64,000 bases of DNA from assembly GCA_964593375.1 (NCBI GenBank), contig CAZQIF010000001.1, positions 98,185-162,184 of the forward strand. The letters run 5' to 3'. The position numbers were made by a program, and so were the translations under genes. The stretch comes from an uncultured Candidatus Saccharibacteria bacterium (GTDB lineage: Bacteria; Patescibacteriota; Minisyncoccia; Phycocordibacterales; UBA918). Positions 41,824-49,243 of the stretch are shown here, in pieces (the stretch's first letter is position 1; every line of letters begins with the position of its first letter). The notes under the pieces are model-generated. The model searched no databases. It was not told where the DNA came from and worked only from the letters and a program-made list of their open reading frames with translations.

Positions 41824-43518
41824 TTACTTGAGCGTATAAAAGATTCTTCCGAGTCGAATAATGTCGTAGTCATAGCGCTCATCGAGCGCCTCATACACCG
41901 GCTTCAGCTTTTCGGTACCCTCTGCCCTAAATGCTTCACTGAGCTCACCATAGATATGATTCCACGATGCGCTGTCCGGAATAAGTGCATCAAGGTGTGA
42001 GCGCAAGAGAACTCCCTCTTCGGCAAGCTTTTCGATATGTACCCAAATGGTAGACGGTGCCATATTGCGCACTTTTGCAATTTCATTTACTGAGTGCTGT
42101 TTGAGTACAAGTTCTTTCGTTGCCTCTAAAGTACTCTCCTTTTTCATCCGCTCTCCTGGTGTCTTTTTCGCTTTTCCCTCACTTGGTTCGACATCCCATT
42201 TTCCACCCGATGCGTTCACGAAGTTCTTTTGCATCGTCTCTATTTCTCCGTCATCCATTTCATTAAACGCAAATTCACCGTCATCTGATTCTTCTCTAAA
42301 ACGTGCGTCACGAAGCACCACGCGCGGATCAACGAGGAGTGCTTGGGAATTAATACCAAGAATCTTCATACCCATAAGCGAACGCACGCGAGAGAGCGCA
42401 ACATAGCCCTGCCCGTACGTAAAAGCGTTTCGCAGGTCAATTTCAGCAGCATCAAGCGACATTCCTTGGCTCTTATGCACGGTAATCGCCCATGCAAGAC
42501 GGAGTGGCACTTGCGTTACCTCTGCAAGCACCTTCCCATCCTCATTCATAACACTCCATGAAGAAGGCTCAATCTTCAACGTTCGTCCATCACTTGTTTC
42601 AATGATTGGAAATCCATCTTCCCTATCAAAATCAGTGACACGTCCCAAGGTGCCATTCACATACCCCACCTCAAAATTATTTTTTGTGCACATGACCATC
42701 GCCTCACGCCGTAGTTCTAAAATTTCTGGAGAGAGACAACTCTTCACGAGACCGACGAGCAGTTGTTTATTACCATGCGCTTCCATCTTATATGTTGCAC
42801 CCTCAGTGTTAAGTTCGCCAAGTCTCGTGAGGTTGACTGAATCGACATCGCTATTGTGGGTAAAGAGTCGTGTTGGTTCAATATCAGGAAATCCAATGTC
42901 CGTTTGTTCTGAAAGAAGTGTGTAGTGCGATTCCTCGACATCATTACGGCGAATTGATGCAAGAAGTCCAAGAAGCAATTCGTCTTCTTGTCGATGTTGT
43001 TCGGTAAGGTAGCAGGTGAGAAATTTCGCCCCTTCCCATGAACGTGACTCAAAGGCAAAGCGAGGCATCTCTCCCCTTCCTGCAATTGGAGGAAGTTGAA
43101 AAAAATCACCAACTAAAATCACTTGGAGTCCACCGAATGAATCACCGTTTCGACGAATTGTTCGACAGACTGCTTCCACCATATCGAGCACCCGTCCGTC
43201 TAACATTGAAATTTCATCGATGACAAGCACCTTTGCTTTTTGAATGCGCTTAACTGTTTTTTCTTTTCCGGCAATAAAATCCAAATCGTACTGTGTGAGC
43301 GTATCGCGAATGCCAATGCCACTCCATGTGTGAATCGTCATGCCCCCAATATGGGTTGCGGCGATTCCGGTTGATGCGGTCACTGCGACAGAAATGCCAT
43401 GAGCTTCGAGCCATTCAATGTATTCATTAAGTACATATGTTTTTCCTGACCCTGGTTCTCCCGTGAGAAACACATTCGCACCGGTCTTTAAAATCTCCAG
43501 AGCCTGTTTTTGAATCAT
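41824..43518 (-). CDS. PIF1-like (RecD/Pif1 family) ATP-dependent DNA helicase with a C-terminal HTH-like domain
   Basis: Walker A TGEPGSGKT, the Pif1 signature GDFFQLPPI and TVHKSQG are present. An alternative GTG start lies at 43551. Confidence 0.8.
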   Translation of the reverse strand: MIQKQALEILKTGANVFLTGEPGSGKTYVLNEYIEWLEAHGISVAVTASTGIAATHIGGMTIHTWSGIGIRDTLTQYDLDFIAGKEKTVKRIQKAKVLVIDEISMLDGRVLDMVEAVCRTIRRNGDSFGGLQVILVGDFFQLPPIAGRGEMPRFAFESRSWEGAKFLTCYLTEQHRQEDELLLGLLASIRRNDVEESHYTLLSEQTDIGFPDIEPTRLFTHNSDVDSVNLTRLGELNTEGATYKMEAHGNKQLLVGLVKSCLSPEILELRREAMVMCTKNNFEVGYVNGTLGRVTDFDREDGFPIIETSDGRTLKIEPSSWSVMNEDGKVLAEVTQVPLRLAWAITVHKSQGMSLDAAEIDLRNAFTYGQGYVALSRVRSLMGMKILGINSQALLVDPRVVLRDARFREESDDGEFAFNEMDDGEIETMQKNFVNASGGKWDVEPSEGKAKKTPGERMKKESTLEATKELVLKQHSVNEIAKVRNMAPSTIWVHIEKLAEEGVLLRSHLDALIPDSASWNHIYGELSEAFRAEGTEKLKPVYEALDERYDYDIIRLGRIFYTLK

Positions 43519-43587
43519 GTCGACTATTATACAAAAGTAACGGCCACTCACCTAGGTGAGTGGCCGAGTAGCAATGTGGGATTCTTT

Positions 43588-44103
43588 CTAGAGACGGTTC
43601 CAAAACCAAGTTCGCTCCATCGGGAATCCATCAATGAAAATGTTCAGAGCCATGATACACATGAGGAGATAGAACACCACAAACGCGACGACCAGAATAT
43701 GGTGCCGAGCCGGGTTTTCGAGACCCGAATATGTATTCCGGAGTAATCCGTACATCGTGACAAGCCCCACCGCAAGAGTGTTAAACATAATGAACTGTGG
43801 GTCGTCTAAGATCACATTCGTTCTCCAGATGGCTGAATCGAGTCCAACAACTCCAAGAAGGGCCATCGCCATCAAAATGCTCGAAAGTCCTTTGTGATTA
43901 TCGACAGCGTCGATCTCAGAGTGTCTCATCGCCCGTTGCAGTCGGTGCGCCGCCCTCCCTGAGGTCATCATGTAGACAAAGTACATGAATCCCATACCAA
44001 GAGATAAAACGCTTAACGTTGCACCATTTATCGGAGTACTGACGACAATGCACAGCACCAACACTGCCCAAATACTGATTCCGACAAGTCGCGAAAATGA
44101 AGC
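43588..44103 (-). CDS. Hypothetical 4-5 TM membrane protein
   Basis: The ORF is open to 44205. The start is taken at MASFSRL. Confidence 0.35.
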   Translation of the reverse strand, partial: ASFSRLVGISIWAVLVLCIVVSTPINGATLSVLSLGMGFMYFVYMMTSGRAAHRLQRAMRHSEIDAVDNHKGLSSILMAMALLGVVGLDSAIWRTNVILDDPQFIMFNTLAVGLVTMYGLLRNTYSGLENPARHHILVVAFVVFYLLMCIMALNIFIDGFPMERTWFWNRL

Positions 44104-44355
44104 CATGAGTCTCTCCTCGAGTGAATAAGAGCAAAACTTACCAACCGGCATAGTACCACAAAATCTTAGTACTTCCAGACGAACGTACCCCGTGGACTTT
44201 ATCAAACGACATATTTCTGGTATAACTATGGCCGGAAATTAAGAAGCGCAAGCAACTATAATTTCCGAGCCCGTCGGTTCATGTGTCCCAGAGAGACACC
44301 TTGAACAGACGCCAGAGGCAAACGCTCAGTACAGAACAAACGTAGATACACATTC

Positions 44356-44545
44356 GGCCTCATCGTCTGACGCTGAAATTTGTATGATGCGAATGCATCA
44401 TAACAAGCAAACTGCTTTGCTTGTGTACAAATTTCAGAATCGGAGCATGTCGCTCTGCGACAGCGAGATGGGGTCGCGGAATTTCGCAAGAAATATCCGA
44501 GACTAGGACAGCTGGTCTTGTAAACATCCAGCAAATCGGTTCAGT
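44356..44545 (+). pseudogene. Pseudo-tRNA-Glu. The 5' acceptor/D fragment GGCCTCATCGTCTGACG lies at 44356-44372, followed by a 131-nt insert. A D/anticodon-arm fragment with an enlarged loop lies at 44503-44544. The T arm and 3' acceptor are missing.
   Basis: Direct alignment to the intact tRNA-Glu immediately downstream. Confidence 0.6.
44373..44437 (+). repeat. 65-nt cloverleaf-like structured insert: a 12-bp closing stem ctgaaatttgta/tacaaatttcag enclosing the two hairpins tgatgc-gaat-gcatca and acaagcaaa-ctgc-tttgcttgt
   Basis: Read directly. It lies inside the pseudo-tRNA. Confidence 0.55.
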
Positions 44546-44557
44546 ACAATTACAGAC

Positions 44558-44629
44558 GGCCTCATCGTCTAACGGTTAGGACAGCTGGTTCTCATCCAGC
44601 AAATCGGGGTTCGATTCCCCGTGAGGTCA
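44558..44629 (+). tRNA. tRNA-Glu (anticodon CTC)
   Basis: A manually folded cloverleaf. The acceptor is GGCCTCA/TGAGGTC, the D arm GTCTAACGGTTAGGAC, the anticodon stem GCTGG/CCAGC with loop TTCTCAT, and the T arm CGGGGTTCGATTCCCCG. Total length is 72 nt and CCA is not encoded. Confidence 0.85.
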
Positions 44630-44644
44630 TGTTACAAAAGCGAG

Positions 44645-44667
44645 CACGTATTAACGTGCCGTTTTTG
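44645..44667 (+). terminator. Intrinsic terminator gcacgtattaacgtgc followed by cgttttt, after the tRNA
   Basis: A perfect 6-bp stem followed by a T run. Confidence 0.6.
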
Positions 44668-44683
44668 TTAATGACCTCACGGG
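44654..44683. repeat. 30-bp direct repeat acgtgccgtttttgttaatgacctcacggg, copy 1. It contains the reverse-complemented tRNA-Glu 3' end. Copy 2 lies at 45692-45720.
   Basis: Direct comparison gives 26 of 29 identical positions. Confidence 0.65.
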
Positions 44684-44834
44684 CAAGAGTGTATAGACAC
44701 TCTTGCAGGGGAATCGAACCACCGGAACGATGTTACATCGTCACGAGTGAGGTGTGTCCCGCGGCACTTAATATTTTGTAAGTGAAGCGCAACAAAATAT
44801 TTAGTGACCGTCAGGATCATTCCCCATGAGGTCA
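44671..44834. pseudogene. Further tRNA-Glu-derived fragments. One is minus-oriented with a T-arm/acceptor-like sequence interrupted by the 22-nt hairpin caagagtgtatagacactcttg. A plus-oriented 3' fragment gatcattccccatgaggtcac lies at 44814-44834.
   Basis: Similarity to the tRNA-Glu T arm and 3' end. No intact cloverleaf could be folded. Confidence 0.45.
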
Positions 44835-45830: not shown

Positions 45831-46187
45831 ATGGAAAAAGTTCCTTTAGTACAGTACGGTGGAGTTATTCAGACTCTGCTTGCTGAAATCATGAACAAAC
45901 GACGTGGAGCAATGAAAGGATCACAGGAGCAATATAGCGATATTCCACCTCGAGATTTTTTCGCCTACATTGCAAAGCACCCACTCCCCGAAGTCGAGTA
46001 TTTTGACAGATGGATGGCCGAGAAAGTGAACGAGATCATCCGCTTCATCAACAAAACTGATGATGCGCTGAATCTCAAGCGTGCAATCAACTACGTACTC
46101 AAACAAAGCGGAAACAATGGGCACTGCCCGTTTGCGGGAGACAACTATAGTCCCGACCGCCTCGAGATTGATGACAGAGATGAATAA
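45831..46187 (+). CDS. Hypothetical protein (118 aa)
   Basis: RBS ggagg precedes the ORF and a strong terminator follows at 46215-46275. The ORF is open from 45756. Confidence 0.4.
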   Translation: MEKVPLVQYGGVIQTLLAEIMNKRRGAMKGSQEQYSDIPPRDFFAYIAKHPLPEVEYFDRWMAEKVNEIIRFINKTDDALNLKRAINYVLKQSGNNGHCPFAGDNYSPDRLEIDDRDE

Positions 46188-46279
46188 AACAACCTACGGA
46201 GAGAGCACACAGGACTCCAGCTCCCGCTTATGAAGACAAAGACTGTCTTCATAAGCGGGGGCTGTTTTATTTTTGATAC

Positions 46280-46380
46280 TAATCCAACTTAATACACTGC
46301 ACGGGGCAGGCCTCAGTAGCGTCTTTGTTGGCTTCGAAATTGGCTTCGTCGATTGGTGCGACGACCACGCGATTATTTTT
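46280..46380 (-). pseudogene. Ferredoxin 3'-end remnant encoding ...KNNRVVVAPIDEANFEANKDATEACPVQCIKLD*. It is the displaced copy of the fdx C-terminus.
   Basis: It is about 85% identical to 47018-47118. The first 37 nt, which include the stop codon, are identical. Confidence 0.6.
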
Positions 46381-46609
46381 TGGTACGCTTGAGAAAATTG
46401 AGATATACAACCCTATCGATACCGAGTGTACGAAGATTATTAAGTACAATCATTTGTGGTAACTGTGAGTCTCTTGGGATTACAATTGGTCTGTTTATTC
46501 CCACTTTCCAATAGATGCGGTGGTCTCCCTTTTCCCTTTTAAACTCACAACCCTGACTCAAAAGAAACTTTTCGAATTCTTTCCAATGTATTGCGCCTAT
46601 TTTTGGCAT
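46373..46609 (-). CDS. hicA: HicA-family type II toxin (mRNA interferase)
   Basis: KEFEKFLLSQGCEFKREKGDHRIYW...VIPRDSQLPQ..VLNNLRTLGI matches the HicA/YcfA pattern. Confidence 0.7.
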   Translation of the reverse strand: MPKIGAIHWKEFEKFLLSQGCEFKREKGDHRIYWKVGINRPIVIPRDSQLPQMIVLNNLRTLGIDRVVYLNFLKRTKK

Positions 46610-46621
46610 GCGGAGGAAATG

Positions 46622-46903
46622 TTAGGCAAAAGTAGGTACCTTAACACTAAAATCTTTCGTCGTAATAGTTGGTGGAGTCCATTGTTTTAGAACTTTCTTC
46701 CACCCAAGTTCAGAAAGTACTTCGTCGGTAGTGCCGGCATTATGCAGTTCTTCAAAAAAAATACCCACAAGTTCATTGAAGCGTGCTTTCACCTCCTTAT
46801 CTGATTTACCTGAAGTTGCGATATCAAGAGCAGGCGCATACGCAACAAAGCGACGGCCTTGCTTAGAAATATTGACTTTAAGTTGCAGAGAATTTGGAAT
46901 CAT
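46622..46903 (-). CDS. hicB: HicB-family antitoxin
   Basis: RFVAYAPALDIATSGKSDKEVKARFNELV is a UPF0150/HicB-like N-terminal domain. The gene lies upstream of hicA in the same operon. Confidence 0.6.
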   Translation of the reverse strand: MIPNSLQLKVNISKQGRRFVAYAPALDIATSGKSDKEVKARFNELVGIFFEELHNAGTTDEVLSELGWKKVLKQWTPPTITTKDFSVKVPTFA

Positions 46904-47026
46904 ATACTTACAGGTTACACCACCACAAAAACTCGGTCAATCATCGATAATTTCATGTACGTTTGCCAAGATTTTGTTACGGCAATTCTATAGTTTATAC
47001 ATAGGTCCGGCCTTCGTAATTGTACG

Positions 47027-47263
47027 TTAATCCAACTTAATACACTGCACGGGGCAGGCCTCAGCAGCGTCTTTGTTTGCTTCGTAGTCGGCTTCATCAA
47101 TTTGAGCCACCACCATTTTATTCCCTTTCATTTTTCCATTCTGGAGGTCGGACTTCCCATCTTCTTCATTCATCTTCCAATTTTTTGGTGCAAGCATCGA
47201 GCAAGAACCACACCCGATACAGGAGTTACGTTGATGACAAATGATAATTTTTTTGATTCCCAT
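47027..47263 (-). CDS. 4Fe-4S ferredoxin
   Basis: The cluster motifs CIGCGSC and ACPVQC are present. The protein is 78 aa long. Confidence 0.8.
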   Translation of the reverse strand: MGIKKIIICHQRNSCIGCGSCSMLAPKNWKMNEEDGKSDLQNGKMKGNKMVVAQIDEADYEANKDAAEACPVQCIKLD

Positions 47264-47314
47264 ACAATGTATTAATTACCCGCAAACTCTCTAGGGGACC
47301 CCTAGAGAGTTTGA

Positions 47315-48577
47315 CTAATTATCCGTTTCTGTTCTGTCTTTCCAGAGATACACGCGGTCATTTTCGCGGACACGACTTGTGACGGGAATGGTTATGATAT
47401 CCCCTTTCTTTGCCTCAGTCACCGGAATCCTATCCACATTGCGAAGTTCAGTAACCGTTGCTGAGTACACTCCCGTGGTCCGTCCAATAATTTTAATCTC
47501 GTCGCCAACTGCAATATCACCCGCATCGAGAAGAATTTCTGCAACACCTGCTTTCACAAAATATGATTGCACCACACCGAGTGCAAATTTTTCTTTGGCC
47601 GCCTTAGAACCTTTCACGTCGCTGTATGCATCTATTTCTTGTCCAAGATAGTAGTTACCGTGCGAAAGTGTGCGGTTGTATACGGTTTTGAGTGATTCAT
47701 AGTACCCCTCAATTTTTTCTTTTGTGTACGTGCCATTTTGCACGTCGAGGAGTGCATGTTTGTATGCTCGGGTCACAACCTCAACATACTCTGGCGCACG
47801 TCCACGTCCTTCGATTTTAAATACCTGTACACCTGCATCGAGAAGCTCGGGTATCTTATCAATCATGCAAATATCAGCGGCACTGAGCACATACTGATTG
47901 TCGACAACAAGCTCTTGCCCCGTTTCTAAATCGGTTACCTTGTATGCGCGTCTACAATTCTGCCTGCATGCCCCACGGTTTGCGGAAGAATTGTCGGTAT
48001 AGAGACTCATGAGACAGCGCCCTGATTGTGCGATGCAGAGTGCACCGTGCACAAAAGCTTCAATCTCCATGAGTCGTCCTTCATTTCCCATGAGATTTTC
48101 TTCACGAATTTTGAGTCCAATATCCTTGATTTGGTTCAGGGTAAGTTCACGAGCGAGCACAACGCGGTTCGTGAGATTTGCAAAGAATTTGACCGACTCA
48201 TAGTTTGAGACAGAAAACTGTACCGAAATATGCACCGGCATTTTTATTTCATTGCAGTACTGCACCGTTGCAAAATCAAAGGCAATGATAGCGTCGACAT
48301 TATTCTCTTTTGCAGCGTCAACGATTTTTCGCATGAGCTTTGTGTCATGGTCGTAGAGGAGTGTGTTCACCACAAGGTACGCTTTCACCTTATGTTCGTG
48401 GCAAATATCAGCGACTTCTTTAATGTCCGCAAGTGTCATGTTGTCTGCGGCACGAGCACGCATATTGAGCTGTGTGACACCAAAGTAAATACTTCCGCAT
48501 CCTGCCTGAATAGCGGCCATGAGACTATCAAAACTCCCTGCAGGGGACATTATTTCAGCTTCTTCTGGTTTCACCAT
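47315..48577 (-). CDS. Peptidase U32 family protein (RlhA/TrhP-like RNA hydroxylation family)
   Basis: EAFVHGALCIAQSGRCLMS and a U32 body of about 420 aa. Confidence 0.85.
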   Translation of the reverse strand: MVKPEEAEIMSPAGSFDSLMAAIQAGCGSIYFGVTQLNMRARAADNMTLADIKEVADICHEHKVKAYLVVNTLLYDHDTKLMRKIVDAAKENNVDAIIAFDFATVQYCNEIKMPVHISVQFSVSNYESVKFFANLTNRVVLARELTLNQIKDIGLKIREENLMGNEGRLMEIEAFVHGALCIAQSGRCLMSLYTDNSSANRGACRQNCRRAYKVTDLETGQELVVDNQYVLSAADICMIDKIPELLDAGVQVFKIEGRGRAPEYVEVVTRAYKHALLDVQNGTYTKEKIEGYYESLKTVYNRTLSHGNYYLGQEIDAYSDVKGSKAAKEKFALGVVQSYFVKAGVAEILLDAGDIAVGDEIKIIGRTTGVYSATVTELRNVDRIPVTEAKKGDIITIPVTSRVRENDRVYLWKDRTETDN

Positions 48578-48628
48578 AGCAAAAAAGTGTACTTGGAATT
48601 AGGAGAAGTGGCAAGGAAAAATATTCCC

Positions 48629-49243
48629 TTACCCATAAAACTCAATCATGCGGTTTACCTTATCTTCAATACTCATCAGAGGGCCGAGACATTCACTGTA
48701 CTCGAGGGTTGCAGAGGCATTCTTCCAAAAATGAAACTTGTGTTTTGCATTGAGACCCGTAAGTCGCACGAGCACAATCGGGACATTCTCTGAAAAAAGA
48801 ACTTTGGCTCCCCGTTCAAAGTCGGCAACCATATCGGAATCACGCACGATCTTCCCTTCTGGAAAAAGGAGAATCGTATATCCCTGCCGAAGAAAGTCTC
48901 GTGTGAGGAGAAGACGTTGCATGCGCTCCATGACGGTATTTCCAATATTGTATCCACCAAAGAGCCGGATGAAAAATCCGAGTATGGGGCGTTCCATGTA
49001 GTCGGGTGTCACCGGATAACGGACAGGAACCACATTCGTCCAGTTTCGTATCCCGATGTGGTACGTAATGAGAAATGGGTCAATCTTGCTCTGGTGGTTC
49101 GCCACAATGAACGTACCATGTGTTATGCGTAGACCATCTGGACGTTTAACGGTAATCCGGAGAAGTCGCGTCAGCACAAAATTGACCGGTATGGTCATGT
49201 ACTGAATTGCAACAAACCAGCCCTTCATGAGAATCTTTTGCAT
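48629..49243 (-). CDS. plsC: 1-acyl-sn-glycerol-3-phosphate acyltransferase (PlsC/LPLAT family)
   Basis: NHQSKID matches HxxxxD, and FPEG is present. The ORF is open to 49276. Confidence 0.8.
   Translation of the reverse strand: MQKILMKGWFVAIQYMTIPVNFVLTRLLRITVKRPDGLRITHGTFIVANHQSKIDPFLITYHIGIRNWTNVVPVRYPVTPDYMERPILGFFIRLFGGYNIGNTVMERMQRLLLTRDFLRQGYTILLFPEGKIVRDSDMVADFERGAKVLFSENVPIVLVRLTGLNAKHKFHFWKNASATLEYSECLGPLMSIEDKVNRMIEFYG

Follow-up and report, generated by a model that had tools for sequence, protein, structure and literature searches.

A hicB-hicA cassette between two copies of a ferredoxin gene end in a Candidatus Saccharibacteria genome: possible one-sided homologous integration

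Movement of chromosomal toxin-antitoxin (TA) modules is largely unexplained, because most of them carry no mobility gene. For restriction-modification (RM) systems, insertion with long target duplication has been described. In this class, an addiction-type pair that lacks a mobility gene has on both sides direct repeats, tens to hundreds of bp long, which come from the local target and often overlap an adjacent gene end. Most cases are found in naturally competent species (Furuta, Abe & Kobayashi 2010, PMC2853133). Long target duplication of RM gene complexes was reportedly also described by Nobusato et al. 2000. In the literature available to us, for which full-text coverage is incomplete, long target duplication is described for RM systems only and not for TA cassettes. 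DNA can also be integrated by a Campbell-type single crossover or by homology-facilitated illegitimate recombination (HFIR), the latter reportedly described by de Vries and Wackernagel in 2002. Integration of this kind has one homologous anchor and one microhomology joint, and a segment is duplicated on both sides. Single crossover of a circular molecule carrying part of lacZ with the chromosome produced 109-950-bp duplications flanking the insert, and HFIR joints lie at 3-10-bp microhomologies (PMC3240628). Elements that target tRNA genes and integrase-less elements mobilisable in cis have direct repeats from the 3′ end of the target and reconstitute the target gene. Prophage e14 and phage 21 integrate into the 3′ part of icd, so that the gene remains whole while a slightly different 3′ end, displaced by the element, lies on the far side; both encode an integrase, their att core is at the 5′ edge of the duplicated part, and the target is always icd. 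TA cassettes of chromosomal integrons are small and have their own promoters, and the similar direct repeats along the array are attC sites recombined by IntI.

We analysed a stretch of 64,000 nt (the window) from an uncultured Candidatus Saccharibacteria bacterium (GCA_964593375.1, contig CAZQIF010000001.1, positions 98,185-162,184, forward strand). As the first-pass annotation of this DNA had noticed, a hicB-hicA pair, with both genes on the minus strand, is bracketed there by direct repeats derived from the 3′ end of a ferredoxin gene. The features of the locus are as follows.

47315-48577, minus strand: U32-family peptidase gene (Pfam Peptidase_U32, E = 2.5e-65)
47027-47263, minus strand: intact gene of a 4Fe-4S single-cluster ferredoxin, 78 aa, stop TAA (Pfam Fer4_13, 9.9e-12; Fer4_15, 3.3e-11)
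47028-47115, minus strand: direct repeat, upstream copy, lying within the intact ferredoxin gene at its 3′ end (in whole codons, 47027-47125)
47028-47064, minus strand: 37-nt block of perfect identity, upstream copy (repeat search)
46958-47026, minus strand: spacer from the ferredoxin stop to the conserved cassette leader
46904-46957, minus strand: leader of the cassette, carrying a putative promoter; start of the DNA homology to related cassettes
46622-46903, minus strand: hicB-like antitoxin gene, 93 aa (probable HicB N-terminal fold)
46373-46609, minus strand: hicA toxin gene, 78 aa (Pfam HicA_toxin)
46373-46377, minus strand: putative junction microhomology AATAA (read from the sequence)
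46279-46377, minus strand: truncated ferredoxin remnant, 32 codons and a TAG stop, no start codon
46280-46316, minus strand: 37-nt block of perfect identity, downstream copy (repeat search)
46218-46264, no strand assigned: 20-bp hairpin terminator common to the convergent ORF at 45831-46187 (dG -37.9 kcal/mol, z = -6.6)

The repeat search revealed a single direct-repeat family, 46280-46367 and 47028-47115, which is 88 nt long and 88% identical with a spacing of 748 nt. It corresponds to the final 33 codons of the ferredoxin gene, stop included; counted in whole codons, the duplication covers 46279-46377 and 47027-47125, each with 32 sense codons and the stop. The duplication reported in the first-pass annotation is therefore real, and only its interval for the intact copy (47018-47118) begins 10 nt early. 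Its observation that the first 37 nt are identical also holds: 46280-46316 equals 47028-47064, this block has only two occurrences in the window, and none of 100 shuffles matched it, even at 3 mismatches. All 11 mismatches of the repeat are confined to the remaining 51 nt on one side of the block (P = 0.0015 for random placement). Identity breaks within the stop codon, which is TAA in the intact gene and TAG in the remnant. The remnant was said to be N-terminally truncated with its frame intact, and we obtained the same translation, NNRVVVAPIDEANFEANKDATEACPVQCIKLD followed by the stop. It shares 25 of 32 residues with the C-terminus of the resident ferredoxin, its specific string is AATAATCGCGTGGTCGTCGCACCAATCGACGAAGCCAATTTCGAAGCC, and its N, F and T residues differ from the family consensus. 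A comparison of C-termini found no database ferredoxin closer to the remnant than the resident gene. The insert between the repeat copies (88-99 nt each) is 649 nt long, and hicB and hicA are its sole genes. hicB starts 123 nt past the ferredoxin stop, and the remnant begins at most 5 nt from the hicA stop. This stop codon is contained in AATAA, which also occurs in ferredoxin codons 45-46 (GGG AAT AAA) and, as read from the sequence, probably marks the illegitimate joint. The homologous crossover, or a later gene conversion, probably took place in the 37-nt identical block. The spacer 46958-47026 does not resemble the DNA that follows the remnant (p = 0.84), and no second copy of it was found in the window or in any fetched locus; thus, the duplication in the window ends at the stop codon. 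A strong hairpin occurs just past the ferredoxin stop in 6 of 10 relatives examined, and the hairpin at 46218-46264 is probably the original terminator region downstream of ferredoxin, now located after the remnant. At an empty site, the intact ferredoxin and the 37-nt core are expected to be followed by GTATCAAAAATAAAACAG.

This locus resembles the RM class in its addiction-type pair, the lack of a mobility gene and the local origin of the repeats. It differs in its payload, a type II TA system, and in repeat identity, which is 82-94% in the cassette family and 93-100% in the published cases. Campbell-type and HFIR integration is known from laboratory crosses and engineered substrates, whereas here it is deduced from natural genomes with segments down to 36-100 nt. 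Several features set the locus apart from e14 and phage 21: no integrase was found, perfect identity is located at the 3′ edge rather than the 5′ edge, and the genes involved vary among related cassettes. Unlike elements that target tRNA genes, the locus combines the absence of an integrase with no family-wide target specificity and a payload of about 650 bp. An integron-like attC reading was rejected: the repeats of this family are pieces of neighbouring genes and different at every locus, and there is no integron integrase.

A second assembly contains the same arrangement. Contig L001 (GCA_020049755.1) carries ferredoxin, hicB, hicA and the remnant in one piece and encodes the same ferredoxin protein as the window. 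Its identical block is at least 55 nt, compared with 37 nt in the window. In L001, 37 nt that form a strong hairpin replace the window spacer at 46975-47026 (52 nt), and TAAGCC(A) comes after the remnant just as it comes after the intact gene. Both post-stop junctions thus differ between the window and L001, which is not predicted by one-sided homologous integration. The convergent ORF and the GNAT gene were also looked up to reach the downstream junction of the L001 strain, with no match. Exact-protein look-ups found L001 and the Logan contig L022 only, which are from the same or a near-identical strain. L022 is identical to the window, and its end coincides with the final base of the 37-nt core. 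Such a break is expected from a k=31 graph at a real repeat, which indicates that the repeat is not an assembly artefact.

The inserted genes resemble the HicAB family, with some deviations. HicA matches Pfam PF07927 HicA_toxin over profile positions 1-58 of 58 (36.2 bits, cutoff 27, E = 6.7e-9), and NCBIfam gave no name for it. Gly-x-His is the conserved catalytic motif of HicA; the window HicA carries KGDHRIY, and GDH or GSH is present in six other HicA homologues examined. For the HicB-like protein, Pfam and NCBIfam gave no match, and two of 18 members of its family touch HicB_lk_antitox (PF15919) at E = 0.012. A profile search matched it to 2yzt (E = 0.1). The best PDB folds for its AlphaFold model (pLDDT 87.6) are 2yzt and 3k6q, an antitoxin of a putative TA system, with probability 1.0 and an rmsd of 1.1 A over 48-50 residues; in Foldseek, the same matches have E = 0.06-0.1 and TM 0.48-0.65. 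The N-terminal fold of HicB antitoxins is partially RNase H-like. Profile searches found no C-terminal DNA-binding domain of HicB (RHH or HTH), and a short beta hairpin alone follows the helices in the model. In summary, a HicA above the Pfam threshold and a partner with a probable HicB N-terminal fold are adjacent, co-oriented and 12 nt apart, as in the HicAB family. In E. coli, hicA precedes hicB, whereas the antitoxin comes first in the window; moreover, this antitoxin has only 93 aa, without a recognisable DNA-binding domain. The leader contains a putative promoter, TTGACC (46935-46940) and TAACCT (46912-46917) with a 17-nt spacer, read from the sequence. A generic promoter scan picked a different, weak site, and for this reason we treat the cassette promoter as putative. 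The blastn homology boundary lies 42-54 nt upstream of the hicB ATG in three related cassettes (L016, L019 and L114), and homology to other cassettes stops at the hicA stop.

The cassette appears to be an acquisition, because related species keep the same gene neighbourhood without it. The U32-ferredoxin synteny is present in 11 of 14 species-level relatives, and these 11 have neither the cassette nor a second piece of ferredoxin. This comparison, which the first-pass annotation had proposed, is at the species level, the U32 proteins of these relatives being only 59-86% identical. A homologue search found no close relative with an empty site, the nearest ferredoxin outside the strain being 71% identical. 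In the 14 related genomes, gene order is not conserved past the U32-ferredoxin pair, and therefore the exact empty site cannot be defined from them. A genome of the donor type, in which ferredoxin is followed by hicBA without a remnant, was not found in the databases searched. The U32 peptidase gene and the ferredoxin gene are likely the homologous anchor region.

We also compared the locus with related cassettes. Among 88 loci with fetched flanks of up to 5 kb, ferredoxin is near the cassette in the window and L001 only. The closest cassette relatives are in four other genomic contexts, the closest further HicB relative (P0003, L114) does not adjoin ferredoxin, and a viral collection contained no cassette relative. 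Of 69 related loci, 16 have direct repeats that bracket hicBA, and these represent 11 of 56 independent groups; none of the 69 has such repeats in inverted orientation, and none of 82 shifted controls has them (Fisher P about 1e-6). In two of these 11 groups, L069 and L076, the repeats involve multi-copy intergenic sequences, which may be unrelated. The repeats are locus-specific, with a different sequence at each locus. Their sources are the genes for ferredoxin in the window, a transketolase N-subunit in L097, a MazG-like protein in L070, a NUDIX protein in L089 and an unnamed gene in L030, and elsewhere a promoter and an intergenic piece. The coding repeats at other loci, including those of transketolase, MazG-like and NUDIX genes, are the 5′ end of the downstream gene; the 3′ end is duplicated only in the window. 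At the coding loci, the neighbouring gene is intact on one side of the cassette, and a truncated remnant lies across the cassette. This suggests that the repeat mirrors the local neighbour and is not a fixed att site, because the repeats of related cassettes come from other sequences. The downstream repeat copy begins within about 35 nt of the hicA stop in 12 loci. Cassette-distal joints are 0-5 nt after the hicA stop in the window and 34-47 nt before the hicB ATG elsewhere; joints so near the functional boundaries of the cassette would also be compatible with a discrete mobile unit that depends on a trans-acting system. In L089, nearly the whole gene is duplicated with an internal deletion in one copy; its close NUDIX homologues sit in other contexts and gave no empty site. 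All repeats longer than 30 nt in the family are only 82-94% identical, so that no young duplication event is seen.

The differences between intact copies and remnants are mainly synonymous. In 167 codons pooled from five loci, there are 33.5 synonymous and 19.5 non-synonymous differences (pS 0.33, pN 0.049, ratio 0.15). The synonymous share is 0.63, compared with at most 0.34 under a neutrally decaying remnant (P about 7e-6), and about 65 non-synonymous differences would be expected in the latter case. In the window alone, the counts are 7.5 synonymous and 7.5 non-synonymous, which is not significant (P = 0.066); thus, the argument for a foreign allele rests on pooling with the other loci. No remnant has a frameshift, including that of the window with 99 nt at 12% divergence. 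The L089 remnant retains family-consensus residues (DSP and IDPKD) where the intact copy is derived, and hence it is not a decayed copy of its intact gene. This divergence pattern suggests two alleles rather than a copy made in place, and one of the repeat copies, judged from these substitutions, probably derives from a related lineage.

We consider that acquisition of the cassette from a related lineage, followed by integration by one-sided homologous recombination, is the best explanation, with a probability of roughly 55%. A homologous segment is duplicated on both sides of the insert and one gene copy is intact, as expected of one-sided integration. The donor would be a related lineage in which the cassette was already located just downstream of the orthologous ferredoxin. 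The incoming DNA would consist of the cassette (promoter leader, hicB, and hicA to its stop) and the last roughly 100 nt of the donor ferredoxin. Integration could occur by a Campbell-type single crossover of a circularised fragment or by HFIR, with the second joint at the 5-nt AATAA by the hicA stop. Either route would duplicate the homologous segment, leaving a complete ferredoxin upstream and a truncated copy downstream that is still joined to the original terminator. The two copies would be different alleles from the outset, and the 37-nt identical block would mark where the crossover could occur or a later homogenisation. No element-encoded or site-specific recombinase would be required. 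The structure of the locus, its presence in a second assembly, the absence of the cassette from related species, the recurrent locus-specific duplications and the synonymous bias are observed; how the donor was arranged, by which pathway recombination took place and which of the copies is foreign are inferred.

The first-pass annotation had interpreted the locus as a site-specific insertion with the ferredoxin 3′ end as the attachment core. Its geometry stands: the cassette separates an intact gene from a displaced 3′ end whose frame is preserved. The site-specific core is not supported. A miniature integrative element, served by an integrase in trans and using the last 37 nt of ferredoxin as its att core, would explain why an identical core is present at both ends with similarity decaying on one side, and the TAAGCC(A) after the L001 remnant resembles a circular or tandem junction. 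Fragments of a tRNA-Glu gene nearby suggest recombination activity in the area. We nevertheless regard such an element as quite improbable. No integrase or transposase domain was found in the insert or in the 26 ORFs scanned at 31.4-64 kb, none of 86 other loci of the cassette family adjoins ferredoxin, and the repeats of related cassettes are unrelated in sequence, a promoter and 5′ ends of genes being among them. The limit of the core coincides with the stop codon, which is a coding boundary and not an arbitrary att edge. Furthermore, the homology upstream of the core behaves as a second allele of a working gene; the mostly synonymous differences indicate two alleles joined by homologous recombination rather than an att core with decaying arms. 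Recurrence of gene-end duplications in the family points to recombination anchored in the neighbouring gene and not to a site-specific integrase. An assembly artefact, that is, a collapsed or chimeric join of strain variants, is very improbable. A join of this kind would be in keeping with the source, a metagenome-assembled genome, and with repeat copies that look like two alleles. However, the first-pass annotation had named absence of the copy at 46280-46380 on resequencing as a refutation, and the independently assembled L001 spans the entire structure. In addition, shared k-mers do not explain the novel junctions (hicA stop to remnant and ferredoxin stop to spacer), the Logan contig breaks at the end of the core, and this type of locus is found again in several samples and assemblies.

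A duplication of about 100 nt could also have been made in situ, by insertion into the 3′ part of the resident ferredoxin gene, after which the copies diverged and the last 37-55 nt were homogenised by gene conversion. The geometry matches the published RM class, in which there are no mobility genes and the direct repeats are 46-423 bp (PMC2853133). The substitutions in the window itself do not reject this explanation, the three non-consensus residues of the remnant agree with it, and the different lengths of the identical block in the window and L001 are as patchy conversion gives. It is rather unlikely in our view, since a neutrally decaying remnant is rejected by the pooled substitutions, the published repeats are more similar to each other than those of this family, and 99 nt have diverged by 12% with zero frameshifts. 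Pre-existing tandem ferredoxin paralogues, the downstream one having lost its first 45 codons to the cassette, would likewise give synonymous-biased divergence, and L089, with its almost wholly duplicated gene and the internal deletion in one copy, is consistent with this. We find this improbable, because the 11 relatives with U32-ferredoxin all lack a further ferredoxin downstream, and every repeat-bearing locus would need a tandem duplicate and a deletion ending exactly at the cassette edge.

One-sided homologous integration, if it is the route, would have implications beyond this locus. CPR genomes are small, and DNA uptake has been shown in one CPR group. Saccharibacteria of the CPR are described as naturally competent in a bioRxiv preprint (PMC10187176, later in Cell as PMC10633639). 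It is possible, as a tentative generalisation, that minimal promoter-to-stop hicBA cassettes, which have no recombinase, spread between related genomes in CPR/Patescibacteria by carrying a short piece of a neighbouring conserved gene; host homologous recombination would then place them next to the orthologue, which stays intact, with the foreign-allele stub as the scar. This locus and its relatives offer a concrete and testable route, namely integration anchored in a neighbouring conserved gene, with a two-allele duplication of the gene end as its mark. If true, this would provide evidence from natural genomes for one-sided homologous integration, a process known so far chiefly through laboratory crosses. 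The class of insertion with long target duplication, described for RM systems, would then include TA systems as well, and the cassettes would have a self-propagating cycle of the kind proposed but never shown for RM systems. For annotation, short frame-intact fragments of gene ends beside TA pairs would be read as recombination scars and not as att sites or independent pseudogenes. The flanking repeats may also allow the cassette to loop out as circles or to be amplified in tandem, as hinted by contig L001, which terminates in the 55-nt repeat of the ferredoxin end.

The cassette lies between the intact ferredoxin gene and a second copy of the 3' end of that gene. The features of this region are as follows.

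47315-48577, minus strand: U32-family peptidase gene
47027-47263, minus strand: single-cluster 4Fe-4S ferredoxin gene, 78 aa
46622-46903, minus strand: 93-aa ORF, the HicA partner (hicB)
46373-46609, minus strand: HicA toxin gene, 78 aa
46279-46377, minus strand: repeat of the ferredoxin C-terminus, 32 codons and a stop with no start codon (the remnant)

A repeat search revealed only one direct-repeat family here, 46280-46367 and 47028-47115, which is 88 nt long and 88% identical. The opening 37 nt match perfectly and occur at exactly two sites within the window, with zero matches in shuffled sequence. All 11 mismatches fall within the remaining 51 nt, a clustering that random placement would give with P = 0.0015, and identity breaks off within the stop codon (TAA vs TAG). 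The duplicated ferredoxin end around hicBA and its 37-nt identical core had been described correctly in the first-pass annotation, except that one of the intervals was off by 10 nt. A six-A run precedes the hicA stop (46370-46382), and the +1 frame stays open from within hicA through the remnant (ORF 46279-46449). Read purely from the sequence, a +1 shift would join HicA to the ferredoxin C-terminal peptide.

The first-pass annotation had noted that the upstream copy could be an assembly duplication. This was not borne out. Exact-protein look-ups identified L001, a 1,109-bp contig of a near-identical strain from a different assembly (GCA_020049755.1), in which an unbroken stretch runs from the U32 end through ferredoxin, hicB and hicA to the remnant; this rules out an assembly artefact. 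Logan contig L022, which matches 47028-48697 with 100% identity, breaks off at the final base of the 37-nt core; a genuine repeat would force a k=31 graph to branch at just that point. L001 is two substitutions apart from the window except for one short segment; nearly identical elsewhere, the two diverge precisely at both post-stop junctions. In the window, the 52 nt directly downstream of the stop of the intact ferredoxin gene (46975-47026) show no strong structure, whereas L001 has a 37-nt hairpin there (373-409; dG -22.7 kcal/mol) resembling the U32/ferredoxin intergenic hairpin at 47283-47313. This replaced segment is the sole sizeable difference between the two strains. After the remnant, the window reads TAG TATC and L001 reads TAA GCC(A), the bases that also follow the intact gene of L001. 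The L001 contig closes on a stretch of exactly 55 nt (1055-1109) that matches the end of the intact ferredoxin gene plus GCCA perfectly. Possible readings are that the duplication is longer in that strain, that the cassette is in tandem or circular form, or that this is only an assembly-graph loop.

HicA scored above the Pfam threshold. Its 93-aa partner matched no family in Pfam or NCBIfam and has no recognisable DNA-binding domain. It is a member of a small family of 18 clusters. The best structural matches to its confident model (pLDDT 87.6) were the HicB-like antitoxins 2yzt and 3k6q, which align over the beta-beta-beta-alpha core, though with weak scores. The closest cassettes (HicB identity 71-86%) are found in four contexts that are unrelated. 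At the DNA level they resemble the window from 18-54 nt before the hicB ATG (42-54 nt in three of these contexts) to the hicA stop, with nothing beyond, although at this divergence these boundaries may just be where functional conservation ends. No cassette relatives were found in the viral collection.

Scanning metagenomes with the HicB alignment yielded 80 further loci, and we compared 400 nt before hicB with 400 nt after hicA at the 69 loci with adequate flanks. Sixteen of these had a significant direct repeat around hicBA. Inverted repeats were found at 0/69 loci, and direct repeats at 0/82 shifted pseudo-cassettes on the same contigs (Fisher P about 1e-6). When near-identical contigs were collapsed, 11 of 56 independent groups carried repeats, and in eight of these 11 the downstream copy begins at most about 35 nt from the hicA stop. 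Flanking duplication is a habit of the cassette family. The repeat sequence differs locus by locus. It consists of codons 1-13 of a transketolase N-subunit gene in L097, codons 1-27 of a MazG-like gene in L070, codons 1-16 of an unnamed gene in L030, an almost entire NUDIX gene in L089 (where one of the copies is internally deleted), a promoter in L056, and an intergenic piece from the stop codon of the upstream gene onward in L086. At loci with a duplicated 5' end, a truncated stub and the native upstream region precede the cassette, and the hicA stop directly abuts the intact gene (TAGATG in L030). The window, with a duplicated 3' end, is the mirror image. In the L069 and L076 groups the repeats are intergenic and multi-copy, and these two may not be related to the others. 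The single window locus is an ordinary-looking scar, but it led to a recurrent pattern with statistical support that makes the route by which toxin-antitoxin (TA) cassettes spread testable.

Some details of individual loci were also observed. The nearly complete NUDIX gene lies on both sides of hicBA in L089 (2673-2929 and 3582-4073) and in L103-L108, about 230 nt being missing internally from the upstream L089 copy; this arrangement recurs in at least eight places among 19 contigs with the NUDIX protein, from several groundwater assemblies. In L070, a C-terminal fragment that by eye is ISL3-family transposase-like (ITNGYTEGIHTKIKLLKRMSYGISNPTTYIKRMIL) lies between the MazG-like 5' stub and hicB (373-629), indicating that extra donor DNA can accompany the cassette. 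In L056, hicBA is immediately followed by another small gene pair (2152-2726), the second of whose products is RelE/ParE-like by eye, and the duplicated piece is the promoter region of this pair (TTGAAT-17 nt-TACAAT).

How did the repeats arise? A tandem pair of ferredoxin paralogues predating the cassette is contradicted by relatives. A U32 protein search found 14 species-level relatives (59-86% identity), labelled mostly as CPR/Patescibacteria (Kaiserbacteria, Paceibacterota, Lloydbacteria, Moraniibacteria and others). In 11 of the 14, ferredoxin immediately follows U32, and none of these 11 has hicBA or a second ferredoxin piece. This comparison, proposed in the first-pass annotation, indicates that the cassette was acquired. 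The same annotation favoured site-specific insertion with the ferredoxin 3' end as attachment core. This model fails, though an integrase might conceivably act in trans. No integrase, transposase or other recombinase was found in the ORFs scanned (31.4-64 kb), an ordinary chromosomal context with dnaB, recR, rmuC, truB and a mraZ-mraW-PBP-mur cluster; there is no target specificity, ferredoxin being involved only at the window and L001 among the loci compared; and the repeats are locus-specific pieces of neighbouring sequence.

Long target duplication in situ is the nearest described phenomenon, known from the insertion of gene complexes that encode restriction-modification (RM) systems. Its geometry is identical (PMC2853133), and the window substitutions alone are compatible with it (P = 0.066), but substitutions pooled over the five loci with a coding repeat (167 codons) reject it. 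Intact copies and stubs differ by 33.5 synonymous and 19.5 non-synonymous substitutions (pS 0.33, pN 0.049, ratio 0.15), and third codon positions hold 32 of the 53 differences. The synonymous share is 0.63, whereas in-place copying with neutral stub decay gives at most 0.34 (P about 7e-6). A neutrally decaying stub alone would be expected to contribute about 65 non-synonymous changes, against 19.5 in total. None of the five stubs has a frameshift, and at positions where the intact L089 copy is derived, the stub of that locus has kept the family consensus. Among repeats longer than 30 nt, identity reaches 94% at most, so there are no "young" perfect duplications. Compared in this way, intact copy and stub appear to behave as two alleles of a working gene, and the simplest reading is that one copy would have arrived from a related lineage along with the cassette. 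The best ferredoxin outside the window strain is 71% identical, and the remnant has no closer match among database ferredoxins than the resident gene.

Such an arrival would involve an incoming fragment with the cassette and a piece of the donor's neighbouring gene, homologous on one side only. Its integration might proceed through a single crossover after circularisation (Campbell type) or, if the molecule is linear, through homology-facilitated illegitimate recombination (HFIR). By either route the homologous piece would be doubled and one gene complete, the stub being a different allele from the outset. There is precedent from the laboratory: single crossovers between the chromosome and a circular molecule with part of lacZ gave flanking duplications of 109-950 bp, and HFIR joints have microhomologies of 3-10 bp (PMC3240628). 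Natural competence has been reported for CPR Saccharibacteria in the bioRxiv version (PMC10187176) of PMC10633639. The window fits one-sided integration, because the mismatches all lie to one side of the perfect block; the hicA end has AATAA at the joint in common with ferredoxin codons 45-46; a strong hairpin terminator (46218-46264, dG -37.9 kcal/mol) comes after the remnant, the layout seen after the ferredoxin gene in relatives; and the order in L001, intact ferredoxin, own hairpin and cassette leader, looks like a donor-type ferredoxin-terminator-cassette arrangement. Campbell or HFIR insertion-duplication is the nearest mechanism. The present case differs from the RM, Campbell and HFIR cases in its payload, a type II TA pair, in its CPR host, and in its repeats, which are different alleles with a synonymous bias. 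In a full-text search with incomplete coverage, long target duplication was reported for RM systems only. The differences between the window and L001 at the two post-stop junctions are not predicted by one-sided integration. The cassette-distal joints lie very near the functional limits of the cassette, and a discrete unit moved in trans by an unknown system would explain these positions as well as selection does.

A neighbouring region also contains repeats. A Pif1-like helicase with a C-terminal HTH_40 domain (41824-43551) is followed by a 205-aa ORF without a family match (43588-44205), just upstream of tRNA-Glu(CTC) (44558-44629). This tRNA gene has fragments of itself on both sides (44350-44720): direct copies of its 5' part at 44356-44372 and 44504-44539, about 130 nt apart, and its 3' part again, inverted, at 44671-44686 and 44708-44720. 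Recombination or integration at the tRNA may have left these fragments as scars; the ferredoxin remnant is 1.65 kb away. Within the split tRNA-like copy lies a palindromic element (CTGAAATTTGTA ... TACAAATTTCAG; 44373-44437), which matched no Rfam family and is conserved in another Paceibacterota genome (contig L006, 10566-10673).
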